Source of the DNA: an uncultured Gammaproteobacteria bacterium | Lineage (GTDB): Bacteria; Patescibacteriota; Patescibacteriia; Magasanikbacterales; GWA2-37-8 | Reading direction: 5' to 3' | Assembly (NCBI GenBank): GCA_964511375.1 | Contig: CAZEEW010000001.1 | Location: forward strand, 70,512 to 134,511 | DNA length: 64,000 nucleotides | In this document: positions 7,347 through 34,691 of the stretch, one piece after another | How positions within the stretch are numbered: position 1 is the first letter of the stretch | Layout: every line of letters begins with the position of its first letter | Program-made: the position numbers and the translations under genes | The notes under the pieces: generated by a model | Told to the model about the DNA's origin: nothing | The model's input: the letters and a program-made list of their open reading frames with translations, nothing else | Database searches by the model: none

Positions 7347-8429
7347 CTACACCTCTTCCATTTGTGGTTTTTCTAAAGAGAGTGGTTCAATATTTTTTTC
7401 GCCATCCGTAATGCGCATGACGTCCTTGTCTATCTTATTGAATTCTTTGTAAGCAGAGTTATAAGTATTTACTGCTGTACCGAGATTGTTTCCGAGTTTT
7501 TTTAAATACTCGTCATAGGCCAGAAGGTGTTTCCCCAGCTCCTCGACCCGTTTCCGAATTTCTTTCGCCGACTCCTCTATCTGTAAGGCGCGTAAACCCT
7601 GCAAAACAGTTTGCAAATAGGCCAAGAAAGAAGTCGGAGAAACAATAATGACATGTTTTTCTCGGAACGCGTATTCAATTAAATCATGGGTGTTGATTTT
7701 TAAAGTTCCAACTTTATTGATTAATAAGTCGTAGTAAATTCCTTCGGCCGGAATAAACATGAAAGCAAAATCCATTGTTCTTTCCTTTGGTTTAATATAT
7801 TTGCTGGTTTCATCGATGCGGTTCTTCAAATCCTGGACAAAACTTTTTTCCAAATCTTTCTTCCGATCCGGATCTTTTTCTTCGTTTAGGCGATTATAAT
7901 TCTCTAGACTAAATTTGGAGTCGATTGGTATGACTTTGTCTTTTACAAAAACTGCGGCATCAACAATGTCTCCGTCAGTAAATTTATATTGCATGGAATA
8001 ACTTCCGGGCGGCAAAACATTTTTTAAAACATTTTCTAAATAGTATTCCCCTAAGATGCCACGATGCTTTGGGTTTTGTAAAATGTTTTCTAGATTTTCT
8101 AACTGTTCAGCAAAACCAATCACTTGTTTGTTGGTTTCGTCTAATTTAGTCAGTTTTTCGGTGACGTCGGTAATAATTTTAGTGCTATTTTGGAATTGAG
8201 ACTGGATTGTCCGGTTTAAATTAGTTTGCGTATCATTTACAACGCGATGCGTTTCAGAAATTTTTTGGTCAATTTGTCGGTTTAGCTCCTGGATCTGGTT
8301 CTGTAACATCACAAACAGGTTGTTGTCAGATTCGGATTGGGGTTTTTTAAGAGAGAGTAGTAAGAAGACAATTGCGGCGAGTCCAACGCCCAAAAGAATG
8401 ATGAGCGCAATTAGTAGTGTCTCTTGCAT
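7347..8429 (-). CDS. rmuC: DNA recombination protein RmuC
   Basis: N-terminal TM helix, long coiled coil, and a C-terminal RmuC-type nuclease region (DFAFMFIPAEGIYYDL). Confidence 0.85.
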   Translation of the reverse strand: MQETLLIALIILLGVGLAAIVFLLLSLKKPQSESDNNLFVMLQNQIQELNRQIDQKISETHRVVNDTQTNLNRTIQSQFQNSTKIITDVTEKLTKLDETNKQVIGFAEQLENLENILQNPKHRGILGEYYLENVLKNVLPPGSYSMQYKFTDGDIVDAAVFVKDKVIPIDSKFSLENYNRLNEEKDPDRKKDLEKSFVQDLKNRIDETSKYIKPKERTMDFAFMFIPAEGIYYDLLINKVGTLKINTHDLIEYAFREKHVIIVSPTSFLAYLQTVLQGLRALQIEESAKEIRKRVEELGKHLLAYDEYLKKLGNNLGTAVNTYNSAYKEFNKIDKDVMRITDGEKNIEPLSLEKPQMEEV

Positions 8430-8499
8430 AAAGAGTAAAAAAATTGATAATATAACCTGGCTTTAGTTTAGCATTATTTTACTATATTTGAAAGTTGCT

Positions 8500-9846
8500 A
8501 TGGCGGATAAATTTAAACCTGTTCCGGAGGAAATGGCCGGCATGGAACAGGAATTAACTGAACAAGAATTTCAAAAATTAGAGAGACGTCACCAGAGAGT
8601 AGCGCTCACTGCTCTGTTTGAGCGACTAGCTCTGTCTTCGCGCCACTCTGAACTAACAGGCAATTTAAAGGCTGATTTCAATGTTTTGCTCGGGTCGATG
8701 TCAAAAATTTATGGAGAAAAGATCGGTGTCCTCCGACATAAAATCTTTGCAGACAGGGAATTTTTGACGAGGATGTATCATGTATATTTGGCTCTATTAA
8801 AAGAAAAAGAGTCAATTGACAAGGTCGCCTCTGATGTTTTCCACGATCATTTTAGGGAAATTCGTCATCCACCTACGCCACATGAATGGGGTAAAAAGGT
8901 CTTCGATTTATGTACTGGCAGTGAAAACAAAGGTGGGGCCACCTTAGAATTTAAGGAGGGTTTTGCTGTGTTTGCTTTATCTGATCGTGAAGACTACGAA
9001 TATTTTTTAGAAAGCATGCGCACAAGTACAGACATAGTTGAAAGAAGTTACGGCGTTTTTATTTCTAACTTTACAATTCCCGGTTATAATGAAATGAATC
9101 TTATTGTCGTAAATGGCGGCGTTTCTAGCCTTCTAAACGACACTTCTTCATTGGTATCACATGAAAAGCAGCATTTTATTAATAGGCGGCTAGTGAGCGA
9201 TGCAAACCGCCCGATGTTTGATCGGGTTGAATCGGACTATCTTAAGGCCCGCGGCGTGTCTGGTGAGACGCTTCGCAAAAGACTGTCTGAATCGGCTCTG
9301 ATGCAGCACATTAAGAATGAGGTGTTGGCTTTTTTGCGCGATGGAACTGGTGGTAGAGAGGAGGTTCGCTGGAACGAGGAGTCTGTGCCGGTGGGGATTT
9401 ACAATTATCTTCAGGGCTCTTGCTACGCACCCTTATTCGGAATGCTACCAAAAGCGCTACGTGTTAAAACAGACGAAGCTTTGCGGGAAATTGCCGTTGA
9501 AATGAATCTGCTAAAAGGATTTACTACACTGCCTGAACGCGCAGTTTTAGCAAATCATTTAATTTCCGTGCCGCTAGTTGACATGGCCGAAGAGATTAGT
9601 AGGTTTGCTAAGTTCTATACCAAGCGACTGCGAAGGTGCAATGTTATAAGGAGTTCCGTTAGAGAATACGGTCCAAAATTTAAGGACCCTGACCTTGAAA
9701 AAGAAGCCTTTAAGACCGCTAGAGCATTTGAAAGTCACATCGTTGACCCAAGAAACGTTGAGGACATTAGAGATCAGGTTGAAGGTGTGTTTAAGAAGTA
9801 CGGTGTTGCCTTCAAAGTAAGGCAACCCCTTGATTTTTCCACGTAA
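8500..9846 (+). CDS. Hypothetical protein with HExxH motif
   Basis: Long ORF. The ATG at 8500 is preferred over the TTG at 8488. Contains HEKQH (HExxH). No family recognised. Confidence 0.6.
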   Translation: MADKFKPVPEEMAGMEQELTEQEFQKLERRHQRVALTALFERLALSSRHSELTGNLKADFNVLLGSMSKIYGEKIGVLRHKIFADREFLTRMYHVYLALLKEKESIDKVASDVFHDHFREIRHPPTPHEWGKKVFDLCTGSENKGGATLEFKEGFAVFALSDREDYEYFLESMRTSTDIVERSYGVFISNFTIPGYNEMNLIVVNGGVSSLLNDTSSLVSHEKQHFINRRLVSDANRPMFDRVESDYLKARGVSGETLRKRLSESALMQHIKNEVLAFLRDGTGGREEVRWNEESVPVGIYNYLQGSCYAPLFGMLPKALRVKTDEALREIAVEMNLLKGFTTLPERAVLANHLISVPLVDMAEEISRFAKFYTKRLRRCNVIRSSVREYGPKFKDPDLEKEAFKTARAFESHIVDPRNVEDIRDQVEGVFKKYGVAFKVRQPLDFST

Positions 9847-9872
9847 ATATAATAAAATTTGTTGGTTCAGTC

Positions 9873-9944
9873 GCCCCCATAGTTCAATGGATAGAACAGG
9901 TCCGTCCTAAGGACAAAATGTGCGTTCGATTCGTGCTGGGGGCA
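9873..9944 (+). tRNA. tRNA-Arg (anticodon CCT)
   Basis: Hand-folded cloverleaf: acceptor GCCCCCA/TGGGGGC, anticodon loop GTCCTAA, T-loop TTCGATT. No CCA is encoded. Confidence 0.85.
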
Positions 9945-9950
9945 CTATAT

Positions 9951-10021
9951 GGGCCTATGGTTCAGTGGTAGAACGCGGCATTCGCATTGCTGAGACGGCA
10001 GTTCGATTCTGCCTAGGTCCA
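9951..10021 (+). tRNA. tRNA-Ala (anticodon CGC)
   Basis: Hand-folded cloverleaf: acceptor GGGCCTA/TAGGTCC with the G3:U70 Ala identity pair, anticodon loop TTCGCAT, T-loop TTCGATT. Confidence 0.9.
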
Positions 10022-10043
10022 CAAGAAAAATGTGATAAATATC

Positions 10044-10073
10044 AAATTTGTATAGACTAGTCTATACAAATTT
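10044..10073. repeat. 30-bp perfect palindrome AAATTTGTATAGACT|AGTCTATACAAATTT
   Basis: Checked base by base. Lies between tRNA-Ala and the yhhQ-like gene. Its core recurs at 10828..10851. Confidence 0.9.
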
Positions 10074-10091
10074 TGGATTATAGGCTGGATT

Positions 10092-10742
10092 ATGTTTAAT
10101 TTAAGCACGAAAGAGTTCAAGAAAGTCATAATTGCTCTAACAATATACCTCACTTCTCTTTTTGCAGCAAACACCCTTGGTTTGAAAGTAATGCCTTTTT
10201 TGTTTGGTACGCATTTATCTGTCGCCGTGTTTTACTTTCCTTTCGTTTTCTTAATGACTGACATAATTGGTGAGATTTATGGCAAGAAGATGGCAAGGTT
10301 ATTTGTTTTGGCCGGTTTTTTAAGTACAGCCATGTTTGTAATTTACTCGTTCTTGTCCTTGGCAATGCCTTGGTCGGCGGATGGACTTTGGGCCAAAGAA
10401 GGGTATAATTTAATGTTTGGTATTTCTATAAGGATGGCTATTGCCTCCCTTCTGGCCTTTGTCATAGCGGAATATCAGGATGTTTTTTCATTCTTCTTCT
10501 TTAAAGATAAGTGGGGGCAGAGGTTTTTTTGGCTAAGATCAATGCTAAGTAATCTCTGGTCTCAGCTTTTAGATACTGTAATATTTATGCTGGTGGCCTT
10601 TGCTGGCGTATATCCACCCAGGGTTTTGGTAAGCATAATAATTACGTGGTGGTTATATAAAGTAGCAATGGGCGCCCTGTATTCTCCCTTGTTGTACATT
10701 GGTTTAATGTTGTTTCGGACAAAAGAGGCCGGAACCGATTAG
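10092..10742 (+). CDS. yhhQ: Queuosine-precursor transporter, YhhQ/VUT (DUF165) family
   Basis: 216-aa polytopic membrane protein. The segment FYFPFVFLMTDIIGEIYGKK and overall topology are typical of YhhQ. Confidence 0.75.
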   Translation: MFNLSTKEFKKVIIALTIYLTSLFAANTLGLKVMPFLFGTHLSVAVFYFPFVFLMTDIIGEIYGKKMARLFVLAGFLSTAMFVIYSFLSLAMPWSADGLWAKEGYNLMFGISIRMAIASLLAFVIAEYQDVFSFFFFKDKWGQRFFWLRSMLSNLWSQLLDTVIFMLVAFAGVYPPRVLVSIIITWWLYKVAMGALYSPLLYIGLMLFRTKEAGTD

Positions 10743-10764
10743 ATGTTTCACCTGAAACAATAAA

Positions 10765-10790
10765 TACCCCAGATCTGGGGGTATTCTTGT
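10765..10790 (+). terminator. Hairpin terminator after the yhhQ-like gene
   Basis: Palindrome CCCCAGA|TCTGGGG followed by a T-rich tail (tattcttgt). Confidence 0.55.
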
Positions 10791-10827
10791 GGATAAGTGT
10801 GTGTATAAGGCAGCCTAACTGTGGATG

Positions 10828-10851
10828 TTTGTATAGACTAGTGTATACAAA
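10828..10851. repeat. Second copy of the TTTGTATAGACTAGT(G)TATACAAA palindrome
   Basis: Matches the core of 10044..10073 at 23 of 24 positions. Lies in the convergent gap between the yhhQ-like and TrmB-like genes. Confidence 0.85.
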
Positions 10852-10938
10852 TGATCAATTTTCAGACCCAGAACCTTCCGGTTCTAACCTTTCGGAAGGT
10901 GGTTTAGTCGTATACAGATAGTGTTCAACGTGAAACAA

Positions 10939-11676
10939 CTACAGTGTTTTCCACAATACACTATGGATTAGCTTAAACGATCTAGACAGAAGCTGACTAG
11001 TAATCACTGTGGCAAATACCGGCTCTTCTAAGGTAATAAGCGCTACATTGTCCCCCCAGATCAGTATGTCAGTAGGTTGATCGTTCCCATCGCTATCTGA
11101 ATCTGGTAGAAACTTCGCATCGTATAGACTGCCCAATTGTTGCTTGTTTTCTGAATAATTTGTTTCACGTGAAATAGGGGTCAGTATGTCCCTAATAACA
11201 ACATGATTCTTCTTAAACTGACTAATCAGATAATCATATGTATCCGGCATTACCTCAGACAACCGGTGCGTAGATCCAATTGCCCAAAAGCCTTCGGCTT
11301 TAGCGCATTCGTAGTAAATATTTTTTACTTCCTCAACTCCATTGTAGAACCTAATCTTTGGCTTATTTTTGTTTGCGCCAAATAAAACTCGTAGTTCTGG
11401 CACTATCTCATTTAATGAGGCTCTTCGTTTGTCGAGAGAAAGAAGTAGTGAGTTAGGGTCATTAGCATAGTAAATCCACCTACCTCCGGTGCGCTGTTTT
11501 CTAATTAGACCACTGGCCCACAAACTCTTTAGCACGTTGTATGAATTGGTTCTTGTAATCTTGGTGCCTAAGGCCACCTCGGGTGGAGTGGCTTGACCAT
11601 GTTCCACGAGAAACAAATACACCTTAATTTCTGATTTACTCAGTCCGAATTGTAATAAATTAGCCTCGAGATTCAT
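10939..11676 (-). CDS. TrmB-family transcriptional regulator
   Basis: N-terminal winged HTH (LSKSEIKVYLFLVEHGQATPPEVALGTKITRTNSYNVLKSLWASGLI) plus a TrmB-like C-terminal domain. Confidence 0.7.
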   Translation of the reverse strand: MNLEANLLQFGLSKSEIKVYLFLVEHGQATPPEVALGTKITRTNSYNVLKSLWASGLIRKQRTGGRWIYYANDPNSLLLSLDKRRASLNEIVPELRVLFGANKNKPKIRFYNGVEEVKNIYYECAKAEGFWAIGSTHRLSEVMPDTYDYLISQFKKNHVVIRDILTPISRETNYSENKQQLGSLYDAKFLPDSDSDGNDQPTDILIWGDNVALITLEEPVFATVITSQLLSRSFKLIHSVLWKTL

Positions 11677-11762
11677 ATAATATTGTCAAAAAAAATTATA
11701 CCATTTTTATAACTATATGTAAAGAAAAATATGAAAAATATATAAAAATGATATAAATATAA

Positions 11763-11935
11763 TTGACAATAATCACATCTTCCACCAGAATACATAGTTC
11801 TGTGTGGGTTATCCAGACAGCACAAAGAGAGAGCAAGGTAGAGAAACAAATCGGCATACTCGATCGATCATTAAGATCGAGAAGTGCGGAAAGATAGATA
11901 AAACCCAGTGCTTAAATGCGCTGGTTTTTTGTTTT
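11763..11935 (+). ncRNA. Candidate small transcription unit (sRNA or leader), function unknown
   Basis: TTGACA-N17-CAGAAT promoter-like element, internal hairpin CTCGATC-N9-GATCGAG, and terminator CCAGTGC-ttaaat-GCGCTGG followed by TTTTTTGTTTTT. No convincing ORF. Confidence 0.3.
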
Positions 11936-11985
11936 TAAAAAGTAAAAAATATGGTATAATGTTCAGGAAGAAACAACCAATCTAT

Positions 11986-14274
11986 ATGCACAATGACAAG
12001 ATAAAAAAAGTTATCAATTTTCTTTCGTTCTCATTGCTTTCTCTGGCTGTATTAGTAATGCCTTTTGTCGTGGATACCAGAGTGTTTAACGCTTTTAATA
12101 TTCCTAAACAAAATTTCTTTTTAGGAATGGTCTTGCTTTTGACTTTGTTGTTTCTCGTTAAATTTGCTCTAACCAAGACCATTTCTCTCCGGTTAACATT
12201 TTTAGATAAGATACTAGGAGTGTATGTTGTTCTTCTGTTGTTATCTGGAGCCTTTTCGGTCCAAAGACTAGATAGTTTTTGGGGCAGAAATGAGTATTTC
12301 ATTACCAACATCATTTTTCTGATCGGTTTGCTGTTGTATTACTATCTGTTTGTCAACACTGTTACAACCACAAAAAAATGGCATTTAATTTACGATGCAG
12401 TGGTCGTTTCTGGTGCCTTGGTCCAAATCCCTTATCTTTTTAAGGTCATATTTAAATGGTCTTTCTTACCCTTTCTAACTGAGGGAATGTGGAATTTGGT
12501 AGCAGAAAGTAATGCCGGGTTCGGTATTTTTGTAACTATAATCTTGGTTTTATCTTTAGGACAGTTGATCAAAAAGAAAACATCATACAATCGTAATCTT
12601 TTTTACATCATCGCTACTGTCTTAAGTTTGGCTACCTTGTCTACTATTAGCTTCTCGTTAATTTGGTGGTTGGTAGTAGCTGCAGTTGGATTGCTACTTT
12701 TACTCGGAATTAATTTTTTACAAGAAGCGAGGTTGGTAACCTTGACTGGCATGTTTCTGATTTTAGTTGCCGGCATCGCCACTTTAATTTTTGGTTCACC
12801 AAAGTTTCTGAAAGCCCCGTTGCCCCAAGAAGCGTTTTTAAGTCCGAGTGCCTCTTGGCAGGTGGCAGAAAACACAATGTTTAAGAATGTTAAAAACTTT
12901 GTGTTTGGTAGTGGACCAGGTACGTTTAGTGTGGATTTCTCTGAATTCCGTGAAGCAGGGTTTAATAACGATGCTCTGGCCTGGTCAGCTCGTTTCAGTA
13001 ATCCATTTAATACCATCTTTGCTTTTGTTGCCGAGAACGGTTTGGCTTTTTCCGCGCTATTTATAATTTTGACTCTTGTAATTTTAGGGTATGTTTCCGT
13101 TTACTGGATAAAGTTGCGAGGTGGGGCGTGGCATCAGAGCTTCGGAGAAGTGGTCGGCTACCGCACGGATTTACGGCTTGAACTTTTAGTTTCATCAATC
13201 GCCTGGGTTATGTTAACCACCACACTTTTCCTACATTTTTTCAAACCAGTTCTTTGGTTCTTGTGGTGGACACTTACGGCCTTGATTATAACTGGTTTAA
13301 GCTTTTATCGTGAAAATATTGTCCGCGAGAAGAAATGGGAAATTGAAAATCGTCCTGAGCACAGCTTGTCGTTTTCTTTCGCGGTCATAATCGTTGTTGC
13401 CCTAATAATTGTGACAAGTGTTTTTGGTGCCCGAATGTATAAAGGAGAACTGGTATATGCCGCTGCTTTACGCGAATCTAAAGTCAGTGAAGCTATCCAG
13501 CAATTAAATACCGCCATTAGGTTACGCCCGAGCACTGACGTGTATTATGCAGCGTTGGCACAGGCTTATTTATCCGAAGCAGTGGAAAAAGCCAAAGAAA
13601 AAGAACCACATCGTGAGGAAGTAGCGGCATCCCTCGGAAGTGCGGTCAATTCGGCGCGCGTCGCTACTGATCTTTCTCCGAAAATGGTTGGACTTTGGGA
13701 AAATTTAGGAACCATGTATGAGAACGCTGCTGTTATGGTGCCTGAGGCCTATACTTGGAGTCTAAAAGCCTGGACCTCAGCCAAGGTTCTAGAACCGACT
13801 AATCCAGTAATTGCCTGGCGACTTGGTCGGATTAATCTCGCTCTCGGTAATAACGAAGAGGCAGCCAAAAATTTTCAAGAAGCCATCAATTTAAAAGCTG
13901 ACCTGCTTGGTGCTTATCTGGGTTTAGCAATCGCCGAAGAGCGGTTAGAAAAAACTTCTGAAGCTTTGAAGACCTATGAAACTCTCCTGACCCTGAACCC
14001 ACAAAATCCCGAGGCCCTGTTTAATTATGGTCGAGTACTGTATAACCGCAACGCCAAAGGAGATCGAAAGGCGGCTGAACAAGCTTGGCTTTTAGCGATC
14101 AAGTTACAACCTAATTATTCTAATGCACTGTACAGTCTTGCTAATTACTATGAAACAAAAGGAGACAAGTCAATGGCTTTGAAATATTATTATGAGGTGC
14201 GCGATTTGAACCCAGATAATAAAGATATTCTGAAAAAGATTAAGTCATTAGCTCCTGCGCCTGAAAAAAAATAG
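11986..14274 (+). CDS. Polytopic membrane protein, O-antigen-ligase-like, with C-terminal TPR repeats
   Basis: More than 10 predicted TM helices followed by TPR-like repeats. The start is set after the TGGTATAAT extended -10 at 11952-11960; alternative starts are 11959 and 11908. Confidence 0.7.
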   Translation: MHNDKIKKVINFLSFSLLSLAVLVMPFVVDTRVFNAFNIPKQNFFLGMVLLLTLLFLVKFALTKTISLRLTFLDKILGVYVVLLLLSGAFSVQRLDSFWGRNEYFITNIIFLIGLLLYYYLFVNTVTTTKKWHLIYDAVVVSGALVQIPYLFKVIFKWSFLPFLTEGMWNLVAESNAGFGIFVTIILVLSLGQLIKKKTSYNRNLFYIIATVLSLATLSTISFSLIWWLVVAAVGLLLLLGINFLQEARLVTLTGMFLILVAGIATLIFGSPKFLKAPLPQEAFLSPSASWQVAENTMFKNVKNFVFGSGPGTFSVDFSEFREAGFNNDALAWSARFSNPFNTIFAFVAENGLAFSALFIILTLVILGYVSVYWIKLRGGAWHQSFGEVVGYRTDLRLELLVSSIAWVMLTTTLFLHFFKPVLWFLWWTLTALIITGLSFYRENIVREKKWEIENRPEHSLSFSFAVIIVVALIIVTSVFGARMYKGELVYAAALRESKVSEAIQQLNTAIRLRPSTDVYYAALAQAYLSEAVEKAKEKEPHREEVAASLGSAVNSARVATDLSPKMVGLWENLGTMYENAAVMVPEAYTWSLKAWTSAKVLEPTNPVIAWRLGRINLALGNNEEAAKNFQEAINLKADLLGAYLGLAIAEERLEKTSEALKTYETLLTLNPQNPEALFNYGRVLYNRNAKGDRKAAEQAWLLAIKLQPNYSNALYSLANYYETKGDKSMALKYYYEVRDLNPDNKDILKKIKSLAPAPEKK

Positions 14275-31288: not shown

Positions 31289-31325
31289 AAAAAAAATAAT
31301 TAGCCGCCCTGATTTAAGAGCGGCT
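31289..31325 (-). terminator. Intrinsic terminator of the DNPH1-like gene
   Basis: On the minus strand: AGCCGC-N12-GCGGCT followed by a T-run (aattatttttttt). Confidence 0.7.
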
Positions 31326-31736
31326 ATTGTTAAATATTTGTTCAATCAGAACGGGTAAATTGTCTGGCGTGGCGTAAGTGAAAATCTCTACTTCCGTATT
31401 GCCCTTAATCATAGCGGATAATTTGTAGGTGTCCTTGCCTTGGTAAAGACAGACAACTCGTTTTTTTTCGTTCAAAGCCTGAGCTATTTCATATCCTACA
31501 CCCAAGCTTGGTGTGGTTACTTCAGCAATTACAACATTACTATTTAAAATGTTTTTCATTTCTCTGTCATGAATTTCCTCTTTACTTAGGTCGGTTTCCC
31601 CGTATACAGTAATATTTTCGTCAGCGACCTGAGCAGATAAAACTCGGCCGTATTTTTGTAGTTCCCCAACTATTGTTGCATATATTGGCAACATGGCCCG
31701 TCCGCCCCGTATCGAACCAGTAAAGAAGATGTTCAT
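31314..31736 (-). CDS. 2'-deoxynucleoside 5'-phosphate N-hydrolase (DNPH1/Rcl-like; nucleoside 2-deoxyribosyltransferase fold)
   Basis: FTGSIRGGR, VVIAEVTTPSLGVGYEIAQA and LSAMIKG match the recalled DNPH1 motifs FCGSIRGGR, VVVAEVTQPSLGVGYELG and LSAMIRG. Confidence 0.8.
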   Translation of the reverse strand: MNIFFTGSIRGGRAMLPIYATIVGELQKYGRVLSAQVADENITVYGETDLSKEEIHDREMKNILNSNVVIAEVTTPSLGVGYEIAQALNEKKRVVCLYQGKDTYKLSAMIKGNTEVEIFTYATPDNLPVLIEQIFNNSRS

Positions 31737-31747
31737 AAAACTTAATG

Positions 31748-32539
31748 TTAATATCTTGGCGTATTGCTTAATTCCCAGATAAATTGAAATAAATTAGATT
31801 GCATTGTAATCAGGTTTTGATCTTCCAGTAAGAGTATGATGGGTTCGCGTCCATCGTGAGTAACGTAAAGCATTTTGGAATTATAAAGGTAAATGTCTTG
31901 GGTGGCAATCTTAAGGTTGTTTGGCCCGAGACGATGCCAAGTATAGTCATTAAGCGGTTGCTTTCTTATCCATTCCAAACTAGCAGTGCTATTTTCCACT
32001 AAAATATTGAGCGGCAGACGCTTATTAAGCCTTCTGACTTCAAAATCTTCTTGCACTTCTAAGCCGGGAATTTTTGGCGTACCAATATGTTTGTAATAAT
32101 AAATTATCTTAGGGTTAGAGCGCAAGATGTCTTCTAAGGCTGATTGGTAACCATGAATACCTTGAAAGATCGATGTGTCCGGTCGTTTAGACGAAAGACG
32201 GTAAGCAGCTTTTAGTTCAGGAATAATCTCCTGGATAGTTAGAGTGGTGTTTTTGAATTCCTGCCCGCGTTTGTCTAGCAATTCATATAACCGGTCGGGG
32301 TTTTCCACAATATATTCTGTTCGCCAACCCGCCTTTTCTCGTGTAACAAGGCCGGCTTCTTGTAAATTGTTTAGAACATAATACAATATGGTACGCGGGA
32401 AAGGTGTGCGTACTTGTAGTTCTTGTACTGTGCTTTTGGGATGCGTCAATAATAAAGAGTAAAGCAGGGACTCATTCTCCCCCAGCCCTAAATTCCGCAG
32501 GGCCTCTACCACCCGACTTTTTGTTTGTTTTTTAGCCAT
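31748..32539 (-). CDS. TrmB-family transcriptional regulator (second copy)
   Basis: N-terminal winged HTH (ESLLYSLLLTHPKSTVQELQVRTPFPRTILYYVLNNLQEAGLV). Architecture is paralogous to 10939..11676. Confidence 0.7.
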   Translation of the reverse strand: MAKKQTKSRVVEALRNLGLGENESLLYSLLLTHPKSTVQELQVRTPFPRTILYYVLNNLQEAGLVTREKAGWRTEYIVENPDRLYELLDKRGQEFKNTTLTIQEIIPELKAAYRLSSKRPDTSIFQGIHGYQSALEDILRSNPKIIYYYKHIGTPKIPGLEVQEDFEVRRLNKRLPLNILVENSTASLEWIRKQPLNDYTWHRLGPNNLKIATQDIYLYNSKMLYVTHDGREPIILLLEDQNLITMQSNLFQFIWELSNTPRY

Positions 32540-32822: not shown

Positions 32823-33986
32823 ATGGAGTCGGTCCGTCTCTTGTCCTGGAGCTTCGTTCACGTGCTCCAGATGATTCTCAACCTCGCCCGGCGCGGCGGG
32901 GTCGACTTCTCCAACCCCGGTCTCCTCCGTGAGGCCCTGAACATCCGGGCCTGGGAGGCCCTCGACGAGTTGGGGCGCGACCCCAAACACTTGTGGCGGC
33001 TTACGCCGCCCCTGCACCAGGTTTACTCTCGGGCCCTGGCTTACGGAGCTGGGGACAGGTGTAGCCATAATCAGGTCTACATGGCAGCCGAACAAGCCAC
33101 CAGTCTCGCCGAGGTAGCACTCGGTGAGGTGGGGTACAGTTGGCTGTCGCGGCGTCAGGTTGCTGCTCAGCTGATCTACGCACTGGCGAATGAGATCCAG
33201 GGCGATCCGCACGCCCTGGACGCAGCCGAGCGTCAGTCCCGCTCCGAGGCCTTCCTCCGGGAGTTCTACGGGTGCGGGTGGGACGACCCCGACCCCGAGC
33301 TCCAGAAGGAAGTTGAGTACTACGAGCGCCAGCTCGGGGTGCTCTACTGCCTCAGGGCGATCGCGGTGCTCACCGAGCATCCCGAGCTCGACCTCGTCGA
33401 GCTGACCCGCCAGGGCCTCATGAAGTACGGGGTCGTGGACACCCGGGGCCGCCGGGTGTGCTACTGGTGCTCCGGTGCCCCCTGCGTCTGCGGTGGGCGG
33501 AAGGGCGGGATGAAGGCCCGCCGGCCGGAGATCACCTCCGACCTCGTCTGGGCCCGGGGACTGCCGGAGATGGACCAGCACATGGTCGTCTACGGCGTGT
33601 CTCGGAACTCGGCCATCAACGCCCTCGCGGGTGTGGTTCGCTCCCTGTCGGAGGACGGTGGGGAGTACGGATGGATCAACCTCATGTCCCGCTGTGGCGG
33701 GACGAACCGGGGAATCCAAGAGAGGCTCGGCTGCCTCTACCTCGGCAGCAGCCGGCACCCCCGCATGGCGGCCAAGAAGTTCGACGCCGAGGGCGTGCCT
33801 CTCATCGAGGGGCTCTACTCGGAGGCGGCGGACGCCGTCGTCTCCTGGCCCTGCCTCGTGACACAGGCCTTCGGTCTGCAGTTCACAAGGTCGGTCTTAC
33901 TCGGTCTCCAGCACATGGCCGATGGCGCCGGGGTCACGCTCGAGACCCCAGACGATCTGACCCGGACCATCCCGGTCCGCGAGTAG
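32823..33986 (+). CDS. Hypothetical 387-aa protein with Cys cluster CYWCSGAPCVC (island 2)
   Basis: Longest ORF of the island and G/C-dominated third positions in this frame. The other long ORFs here are off-frame or antisense shadows. No family recognised. Confidence 0.7.
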   Translation: MESVRLLSWSFVHVLQMILNLARRGGVDFSNPGLLREALNIRAWEALDELGRDPKHLWRLTPPLHQVYSRALAYGAGDRCSHNQVYMAAEQATSLAEVALGEVGYSWLSRRQVAAQLIYALANEIQGDPHALDAAERQSRSEAFLREFYGCGWDDPDPELQKEVEYYERQLGVLYCLRAIAVLTEHPELDLVELTRQGLMKYGVVDTRGRRVCYWCSGAPCVCGGRKGGMKARRPEITSDLVWARGLPEMDQHMVVYGVSRNSAINALAGVVRSLSEDGGEYGWINLMSRCGGTNRGIQERLGCLYLGSSRHPRMAAKKFDAEGVPLIEGLYSEAADAVVSWPCLVTQAFGLQFTRSVLLGLQHMADGAGVTLETPDDLTRTIPVRE

Positions 33987-34187
33987 TCGCCTCGCCGGCT
34001 GTCCTTCGGGGCGGTCGGTGGGCATGGTTTAGAGGTGGGGCGTTTCTCTTAGGGGAGACGCTTGCGCCTCCCCTATCCCAGTATTTCTTAATTCAAGGAA
34101 TGTTGAGATAGGAGGCTCGTAGACCGACGTGTTTTCGTTGGGCGCTCGGTTGAGCGCACGGCGAAACACCAAACAGAGGGAGGACAA

Positions 34188-34547
34188 ATGGTCCACAAGG
34201 ATCTCAGAATCGAGCTGGTGCTCGGCGGCGTCACTTTTATCATCGTTGGCTTCCTCGAGGCAGGCGAGGAAGTGATCACCGGTGATGAAATGAAGCGTCG
34301 GCTGGCGGCCCGCTCCTTGCGGCTCATCCACGGGGCGGATTTCGAGCACTTCTCTCGCTACCGCGAGGATTTGCCGAAAGAACTCCGACCTCACCTACTG
34401 GCCACAGACCAGTGTGCTCCAGAGTGCCAGAAAGAGACGACCGTCTTCGAGTTCTTCGAAGATGTGGAAGTGTGGCACTCGTTCTGGCACAACCTTTGCG
34501 GCCCGACATGGGGCCACAACGTCTTGGCGGTGTGCTGTTGTGTGTAG
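34188..34547 (+). CDS. Hypothetical 119-aa protein ending in CCCV (island 2)
   Basis: Strong SD AGAGGGAGGACAA-ATG and GC-rich codons. No family recognised. Confidence 0.6.
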   Translation: MVHKDLRIELVLGGVTFIIVGFLEAGEEVITGDEMKRRLAARSLRLIHGADFEHFSRYREDLPKELRPHLLATDQCAPECQKETTVFEFFEDVEVWHSFWHNLCGPTWGHNVLAVCCCV

Positions 34548-34555
34548 GAGGGAGC

Positions 34556-34585
34556 GGTGCCGGCGGGGGACCCCCCGCCGGCACC
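34556..34585 (+). terminator. G/C hairpin closing island 2
   Basis: GGTGCCGGCGGGGG-a-CCCCCGCCGGCACC. The T-run begins only 9 nt later, so this is not a canonical intrinsic terminator. Confidence 0.55.
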
Positions 34586-34691
34586 CGTAGTCCCTTTTAA
34601 TTTAAATCACTAGCGTTGTTTTATTATAACTTACCTCTTGATGTACTAAATAATTATTTGTGATATACTTCATTTATTCTAATTCTTAATT

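Follow-up and report, generated by a model that had tools for sequence, protein, structure and literature searches.

A pair of palindromic elements is described here which flanks the gene for a yhhQ-like queuosine-precursor transporter, just behind two tRNA genes, in a 64-kb stretch of contig CAZEEW010000001.1 (referred to as the window; all positions are counted from its first letter). Copy 1, AAATTTGTATAGACTAGTCTATACAAATTT, occupies positions 10044-10073 between tRNA-Ala and yhhQ and is identical to its own reverse complement, being therefore a perfect 30-bp palindrome, as stated in the original prediction, which was made from the letters of the window. Its 24-bp core recurs at 10828-10851 as copy 2 with the single C-to-G difference reported there, and the distance between the two copies is 781 bp. 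Copy 1 is the longest perfect palindrome of the window, the runner-up measuring 18 bp; mononucleotide shuffling, repeated 200 times, usually gave a maximum of 14-18 bp and on one occasion 26 bp. The 18-mer core, searched with up to three mismatches, occurs only at these two sites in the 64 kb, where shuffles predict none, and the whole locus is 100% identical in three other metagenome contigs. The palindromes are here interpreted as high-affinity operators of a lineage-specific, probably dimeric, DNA-binding protein, most likely a small autoregulated helix-turn-helix (HTH) protein; this explanation is favored and considered fairly probable.

The distribution of the motif was addressed by an exact-pattern scan for GTATAGACTAGTSTATAC over one genome per species (185,579 species), which returned 103 stretches from 67 assemblies. 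Sixty-three of these are of Patescibacteria type, mostly Magasanikbacteria, and the other four matches are chance-like (two archaea, one Paenibacillus and one metagenome-assembled genome, MAG, of Fibrobacteria) and share no gene context. The motif was not found in viral contigs. Allowing up to two mismatches raised the number to about 170 instances with the consensus TTT-GTATA[G/C]ACTAGT[G/C]TATAC-AAA, that is, two half-sites, GTATA[G/C]AC and GT[G/C]TATAC, whose centers lie 10 bp (one helical turn) apart, with TTT and AAA on the outside. By comparison with the positions of open reading frames (ORFs), nearly all instances are intergenic, and the usual arrangement consists of two or three copies spaced 65-135 bp; helical phasing of the pair spacings is weak and confounded by orthology. 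Literature searches with the motif string and for regulons or oriC of Patescibacteria or Magasanikbacteria retrieved nothing relevant, and the motif is apparently a protein-binding site not previously described. Patescibacteria gene contexts were also observed in MAGs titled 'uncultured Gammaproteobacteria bacterium' (third-party entries, TPA; L006, L007, L010, L012 and about 35 more loci), and Magasanikbacteria-type contexts in an assembly titled 'Candidatus Udaeobacter' (L084, L101); these Gammaproteobacteria and Udaeobacter titles look wrong, or the bins look mixed.

Clustering of the flanking proteins, domain assignment and inspection of gene order sorted almost all motif loci into three contexts, designated classes (a), (b) and (c), and all three, with no fourth, were recovered from nine assemblies. 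Class (a) begins with an upstream gene (often that of EF-G) and its terminator, behind which two motifs are found with DnaA-like boxes between them; downstream lie a promoter of the consensus TTGACA-17-TATAAT, an ORF-free transcript of about 330 nt and a DksA-like/LspA/YifB cluster. Class (b) comprises a gene for an extracytoplasmic function (ECF) sigma factor and a gene for a DUF5667 membrane protein, divergent from the small HTH gene (about 120 aa), behind which a membrane protein of about 590 aa is encoded; the gap between the divergent genes contains the motifs. Class (c) shows the order RmuC, tRNA-Arg(CCT), tRNA-Ala(CGC), terminator, three DnaA-like boxes, motif and two to four parS sites, and ends with a promoter and a tetratricopeptide repeat (TPR) membrane protein gene. 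Classes (a) and (c) are found on one contig, 13-40 kb apart, in five genomes.

In class (b), TTGAC lies 29-31 nt upstream of the core in 16 of the 20 genome loci, so that the -10 hexamer (TA[AGC]TTT, or TATCAT then TT) adjoins the motif or extends into it, and the start of transcription would fall within the motif. This layout is the classical repressor-operator geometry. The divergent ECF sigma genes possess a conserved ECF-type promoter of their own, TGTAAC-N16-CGTCT, just upstream of the start (e.g., L053:4695-4740), and therefore do not need the motif. In eight class (a) loci the motif likewise overlaps a promoter or is adjacent to one. As a separate observation, the transcript of class (a), which has its own promoter and terminator (L063:6790-7130, plus strand, and the equivalent stretch in about 20 other loci), was folded with RNAalifold on 10 sequences, giving 53 pairs, 23 of them with compensatory changes; it matches no Rfam family, even at E<=5, and may be an undescribed structured RNA of Magasanikbacteria.

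Core positions 6 and 13, each G or C, vary nearly independently (46 C/C, 59 mixed and 3 G/G in an unbiased set), which points to a protein that reads the DNA and away from a hairpin. Mixed sites are mismatched as hairpins, and the perfect G/G dyad of copy 1 is the rarest form of all; selection for perfect dyads was accordingly rejected. Other properties are those of an operator: inverted half-sites one turn apart, intergenic and promoter-proximal location, orthologous positions kept while the flanks diverge and, for the candidate small HTH gene, a site at the regulator's own promoter.

This HTH gene was examined further in a metagenome set independent of the genome scan. There, a motif no more than 160 nt ahead of the conserved protein core was seen in 63 of 69 HTH loci; the register is mostly the same, and most of the loci have one or two further copies about 80 bp apart. 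The protein has 1508 homologues, the best 120 of which are about 70-96% identical to the query, and its core of about 85 residues holds 50 invariant positions among 40 homologues, a conservation which matches the near-invariance of the site. Among the sequences scanned here, matches to Pfam HTH_17 and to TIGR01764 ('excisionase family') fell just under the cut-offs; precomputed database annotation assigns PF12728 to most homologues. A sequence search against the PDB retrieved no relative. The AlphaFold model, with a predicted local distance difference test score (pLDDT) of 86-94 over the core and no predicted coiled-coil tail, found its nearest solved folds by Foldseek in Pukovnik Xis, BldC-DNA, RacA-DNA, the centromere-binding domain of pSK1 Par and DNA-bound MerR-family domains (probability 0.98-1.00, template modeling score 0.58-0.74 on the target, E only 0.03-0.3). 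From this model the protein is predicted to have a MerR-like winged-helix fold (HTH_17, Xis/BldC/RacA-like). The assembly CAZRZQ01 of a close relative, whose locus L019 shares the yhhQ bracket with the window, also encodes the HTH gene with the motif (L107). The best NCBIfam match of the neighboring ECF sigma gene is the BldN family (109.5 bits, under the 206-bit cut-off). In several HTH homologues (P0044, P0049, P0113, P0014 and others) the annotated N-terminus contains 'LYTLVYTN' or 'LYRLVYTN', which is the translated palindrome; the start codons assigned to these genes therefore lie too far upstream, and the reading frames run through the operator.

The window is a class (c) locus, and its features are collected in Table 1. 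The annotation of the neighbors in the original prediction holds: the transporter is matched by Vut_1/TIGR00697, the convergent gene carries a TrmB HTH domain, and a terminator-like hairpin lies behind yhhQ. The absence of a preQ1 riboswitch upstream of yhhQ also held: Rfam at gathering scores matched only tRNAs in the whole window, with no preQ1 or other riboswitch, and at E<=5 over 9990-11000 it returned only tRNAs and noise.

Table 1. Features of the window around the two palindromes.
Feature	Position	Strand	Remarks
RmuC gene	7347..8429	-	conserved left neighbor of class (c)
tRNA-Arg(CCT)	9873-9945	+	conserved left landmark of class (c)
tRNA-Ala(CGC)	9951-10022	+	conserved left landmark of class (c)
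Copy 1	10044..10073	.	contains TTTGTATAGACTAGTCTATACAAA as its 24-bp motif; the G type, the rarer one, in both half-sites
Weak candidate yhhQ promoter	10053..10081	+	-35 TAGACT, 17-bp spacer, -10 GATTAT; inferred from sequence
yhhQ-like queuosine-precursor transporter gene	10092..10742	+	Vut_1 / TIGR00697; lineage-specific resident of the locus
parS-like site TGTTTCACCTGAAACA	10744..10759	.	1 mismatch
Terminator-like hairpin	10762..10786	.	positional counterpart of the terminator directly after tRNA-Ala in relatives
Three DnaA-box-like sequences, single orientation	10788..10828	.	TGTGGATAA (perfect), TGTGTATAA, TGTGGATGT; the last abuts copy 2
Copy 2, TTTGTATAGACTAGTGTATACAAA	10828..10851	.	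mixed G/C half-sites; position common to relatives
parS-like site TGTTCAACGTGAAACA	10922..10937	.	2 mismatches
TrmB-HTH gene, convergent with yhhQ	10939..11676	-	TrmB HTH domain; two parS-like sites inside
parS-like sites within the TrmB-like coding sequence	11161-11176 and 11600-11615		
TPR / polytopic membrane protein gene	11908..14274	+	conserved right neighbor of class (c)

The comparison with relatives that the original prediction proposed separates the two copies. The module formed by the hairpin, the DnaA boxes and then copy 2 is common to relatives, and copy 2 with its three boxes is invariant in the window and in the related loci L075 and L019, where the surrounding sequence diverges. 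The core of copy 1 is also kept in L075 and L019, with different flanks. Only the sublineage of the window, L075/L111 and L019 carries yhhQ with copy 1, the TrmB-like gene and a 452-aa ORF. This ORF (8488-9846, plus strand) lies between RmuC and the tRNAs, has no Pfam domain and was observed only in the sublineage of the window and L075. In most relatives the motif follows the tRNAs without an intervening gene, hence a motif locus without yhhQ, and other genomes bear different variable genes at the tRNA-Ala spot. Orthologues of yhhQ with 70-78% identity in other Patescibacteria (three other contexts) have no motif upstream, and in L109, a Magasanikbacteria MAG, yhhQ occupies this tRNA-Ala hot spot and copy 1 is absent. 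General control of yhhQ is therefore not what the motif provides; a general yhhQ regulon was rejected on the three other contexts. A link to yhhQ is not supported, given these orthologues and the relatives that keep the motif without the gene, and neither is the proposal that the palindrome replaces a riboswitch. Landing of yhhQ in a pre-existing motif pair was considered, prompted by L015 (motif, boxes, motif, with the two motifs 65 bp apart and no gene between); the positions relative to the terminator differ, however. Two small ORFs in the tRNA-Ala hot spot of other loci (L080:1072-1458 and L094:881-1279, 128-132 aa) look, from their sequences, like candidate homing endonucleases, which would support a variable insertion site.

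Upstream of yhhQ, copy 1 ends 19 bp before the start codon. The weak candidate promoter of the window has its -35 at 10053-10058, inside the center of the palindrome, and its -10 at 10076-10081, and scores under the threshold of the promoter scan; the hexamers aligned to GATTAT are GATATT in L075 and GGTATT in L019. A terminator between tRNA-Ala and yhhQ is absent in the window, where the tRNA promoter lies at 9830-9858, and present in L075 and L019. The motif of L075 is preceded by a terminator-like hairpin, and from this hairpin to yhhQ the scan accepted no promoter-like site, so that any promoter there would be weak and would overlap the motif.

A mechanism may be proposed on these grounds. 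The small HTH protein, encoded elsewhere in the genome and divergent from the ECF sigma/anti-sigma pair, would bind the motif and repress its own promoter through the same site. In the window, copy 1 would cover either the weak promoter whose -35 lies in the palindrome or the stretch into which transcription of the tRNA operon would run on, and the protein bound there would shut off yhhQ by either route of transcription. Copy 2 would belong to the shared module of terminator, three DnaA boxes, motif and parS cluster. A loop between the two copies could form and would not be required; spanning 781 bp it would be an unusual arrangement because pairs normally lie 65-135 bp apart. The paired operators of a dimeric regulator put forward in the original prediction are upheld as to operator-like behavior, typically in pairs, with a likely binder other than the adjacent TrmB-like protein, whose gene accompanies only 7 of about 100 loci. 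The conservation of the motif, the three locus classes, the geometry of the promoters and the fold of the protein are shown by the data, whereas we infer both the identity of the binder and the sign of regulation.

Several observations weigh against this interpretation. The association of motif and HTH gene could mean no more than that the gene is a conserved target, and the BldC and Xis relatives of the candidate bind direct repeats, not palindromes. Like copy 2, numerous sites in classes (a) and (c) lie away from promoters and are fused to DnaA-box-like sequences at fixed spacing, which a simple repressor model leaves unaccounted for. Between tRNA-Ala and yhhQ the scan accepted no sigma-70-like promoter, either in the window or in L075, which makes the way in which copy 1 acts on yhhQ a matter of conjecture. 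Finally, flank positions 4-6 are symmetric above expectation (at position 4, 104 of 173 paired versus about 70 expected), a feature that a protein site by itself would not lead one to expect.

That symmetry leads to the reading of the palindromes as nucleic-acid hairpins, be they terminators, RNA processing sites or mobile palindromes of the kind of the repetitive extragenic palindromic (REP) sequences and REPINs. The RNA of copy 1 could form a hairpin of about 12 base pairs, and the flanks of orthologous copies 1 have changed symmetrically (AAATTT...AAATTT versus CTGTTT...AAACAG), a change that may reflect either selection or palindrome-correcting mutation. The predicted folds of both copies are nevertheless weak and AU-rich (-9 to -12.6 kcal/mol, z about -1.5 and -0.7), mid-stem G.G or C.C mismatches at positions 6/13 occur in most copies, the commonest forms of the core included, with no covariation, and transcription starting inside the motif, as it would in class (b), would preclude a full RNA hairpin. 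The terminator scan called neither copy, no U-tract follows directly, and the real terminator-like hairpin is the one listed in Table 1; an intrinsic terminator was rejected, in agreement with the original prediction. Since each genome has three loci at orthologous positions, with no associated transposase and no viral contig bearing the motif, a genome-wide REP-like family, also raised there, is not upheld either, and hairpins of any kind appear very improbable. The finding that had been set in advance as decisive against the prediction, a dispersed repeat tied neither to yhhQ nor to regulators, occurs by halves: the motif is dispersed and not tied to yhhQ, yet it is tightly tied to a regulator gene. 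Scarcely better placed is the suggestion that the TrmB-like regulator encoded next to yhhQ occupies both palindromes and holds yhhQ in a loop, for which a TrmB-like gene about 100 bp to 1.4 kb from the motif in seven loci of different contexts speaks (window, L019, L075, L033, L059, L068 and L100). Where inspected (window, L059 and L100), the motif lies just beyond the 3' end of that gene, away from its promoter; in the window, the region that precedes the gene (11677-11907) holds no motif, nor does the vicinity of a second TrmB-HTH paralogue (31748-32539, minus strand), and at about 95 loci no TrmB-like gene is found up to 2.5 kb from the motif. The TrmB-like proteins of different loci are moreover only 23-30% identical, while the motif is near-invariant. 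The TrmB-like neighbor was rejected as binder on distribution and geometry, and there is little reason to expect that it plays this part. Recombination sites of the att type that bound a yhhQ cassette beside tRNA-Ala are the least credible proposal: the interval from tRNA-Ala to the TPR gene is indeed a hot spot (yhhQ, the TrmB-like gene, the homing-endonuclease-like candidate and unclassified ORFs), and yhhQ with copy 1 is confined to one sublineage. However, the repeat is not derived from the tRNA, no recombinase-type domain was found in five ORFs scanned over 7347-14274, and the same motif stands at promoter positions of two other loci per genome. L109 has yhhQ in the hot spot but no copy 1, and the two motifs of L015 enclose no gene. 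The cassette sites suggested in the original prediction are thus at odds with the lack of a recombinase nearby and with the orthologous, promoter-proximal positions held in 63 assemblies.

A more substantial alternative, although unlikely, is that the motif is an architectural site of an origin-proximal or centromere region, where a winged-helix protein of the RacA/Par type would bind beside DnaA boxes and parS and influence the binding of DnaA, the initiation of replication, the spreading of ParB or the anchoring of the chromosome, with autoregulation as the sole purpose of the site at its own promoter. A DnaA box lies beside the motif at fixed distance and orientation (TTATCCACA-N0-2-TTT-core), and the bin of 11-20 bp center to center holds 42 boxes (33 exact) against about 0.5 estimated from a background of 0.55 boxes per kb. 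The fusion is seen throughout classes (a) and (c) as groups and is shared by a few loci of class (b), and the box trio of class (c) recurs in class (a). Scored against TGTTTCACGTGAAACA, to which the palindrome itself is unrelated, four parS-like sites with one or two mismatches were found within 900 bp (10744-11615) and none elsewhere in the window; in relatives the corresponding interval holds two to four perfect or near-perfect sites, at most a few hundred bp from the motif, so that this is probably a chromosomal centromere cluster. The proximity of classes (a) and (c) in five genomes, the structural neighbors RacA and the pSK1 Par domain, and a 1.5-kb non-coding stretch in L109 with at least five perfect or near-perfect DnaA boxes around a degenerate motif point the same way. 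The window also has further one-mismatch DnaA boxes at 10947 and 11809 and an AT-rich gap at 11677-11907. On the other side, GC skew shows no switch at 10-12 kb, the cumulative skew rising on both sides of the locus, which argues against an origin here, and a search of the window ORFs for a Walker-A pattern revealed no dnaA-like gene. Most class (b) loci lack DnaA boxes, and the class (b) sites and those of eight class (a) loci have the promoter-overlapping or promoter-adjacent geometry expected of operators. A combined and more speculative scheme, held to be rather improbable, is a Patescibacteria-specific system in which a RacA/BldC-like protein at fixed register beside DnaA boxes of two origin-proximal loci, one of them with parS, would couple DnaA occupancy (replication initiation or chromosome organization) to the ECF sigma/anti-sigma signal, yhhQ having merely landed inside.

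Other features of the window were recorded in passing. In the AT-rich gap between the TrmB-like and TPR genes, a 31-nt inverted repeat (11681-11711 and 11741-11771, 84% complementary, 29 nt apart) overlaps both promoter-like sites of that gap and could be the TrmB-like protein's own operator. The second TrmB-HTH paralogue adjoins a nucleoside 2-deoxyribosyltransferase-like gene (31314-31736). An island at 32900-34600 has 61-70% G+C versus about 40% in the genome; its ORFs (32823-33986, plus strand, and 34029-34394, minus strand) have no Pfam match, it has no Rfam match, and foreign DNA, an unclassified RNA and an assembly chimera are all conceivable explanations. The first bases of copy 1 are also the exact starting point of two Logan contigs obtained from different runs (L001:1 and L002:1, equal to window 10044/10045), consistent with a break of the de Bruijn graph by a palindrome of length k-1 at k=31; for assembly this means that perfect 30-bp palindromes would break k=31 assemblies at this exact site.

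Returning to the operator interpretation, the sequence evidence makes it reasonably probable that the motif belongs to the dyad operators that serve a small conserved regulon and whose regulator controls its own gene, like CIRCE with HrcA or the SOS box with LexA, while its sequence, targets and candidate regulator family differ. As in those systems, an inverted repeat of about 20 bp is almost invariant across a lineage, overlaps core promoters including that of the presumed regulator and occurs at few loci per genome. The motif sequence is unrelated to either, the recA gene of the window has no site, the targets are an ECF-linked HTH gene, an unclassified RNA with a DksA-like operon and a DnaA-box/parS locus, and the candidate regulator would be a small MerR-like winged-helix protein. 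RacA with its ram sites in Bacillus subtilis and pSK1 Par resemble the present case in the winged-helix domains matched by the candidate's model, in their short palindromic sites and, for one locus class, in the company of a parS cluster and DnaA boxes; the sites of pSK1 Par lie upstream of its own gene. There is no homology at the sequence level, however, the candidate has no predicted coiled-coil tail, three loci per genome contrast with the about 25 ram sites known for RacA, and the promoter-overlap geometry is that of a repressor. The likeness to BldC and BldN of Streptomyces consists of a small protein of Xis/MerR-like fold and of the below-cut-off BldN match of its ECF neighbor; BldC binds direct repeats head-to-tail, whereas the site described here is a dyad, and the likeness is one of fold only (E about 0.03). 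In Escherichia coli datA and DARS2 with IHF/Fis, and in oriC with sites for CtrA, Spo0A or MtrA, DnaA boxes also lie directly beside the site of a second protein and at more than one locus per genome. Here the partner site is a long palindrome at a fixed gap of 0-2 bp from the box, and GC skew gives no sign that these loci are origins or DnaA-titration sites. REP, BIME and REPIN elements are similarly palindromic, intergenic and often paired about 100 bp apart, but number tens to hundreds instead of three loci; the present motif is orthologous across genera, has no stem covariation and is accompanied by no RAYT transposase.

Patescibacteria have not been brought into culture, their genomes are tiny, and next to nothing is known of how they regulate their genes. 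A 24-bp site that is near letter-perfect over 63 species-level assemblies at three loci is unusual, and together with an ultra-conserved small DNA-binding protein it provides a concrete circuit that is testable in vitro. For annotation, the palindromes around yhhQ should not be taken as a queuosine-specific switch; they point to a conserved small regulon. By connecting an ECF sigma module, a DksA-like operon with an unclassified structured RNA and a DnaA-box/parS region, the circuit may bear on the coordination of growth, replication and segregation in these organisms.

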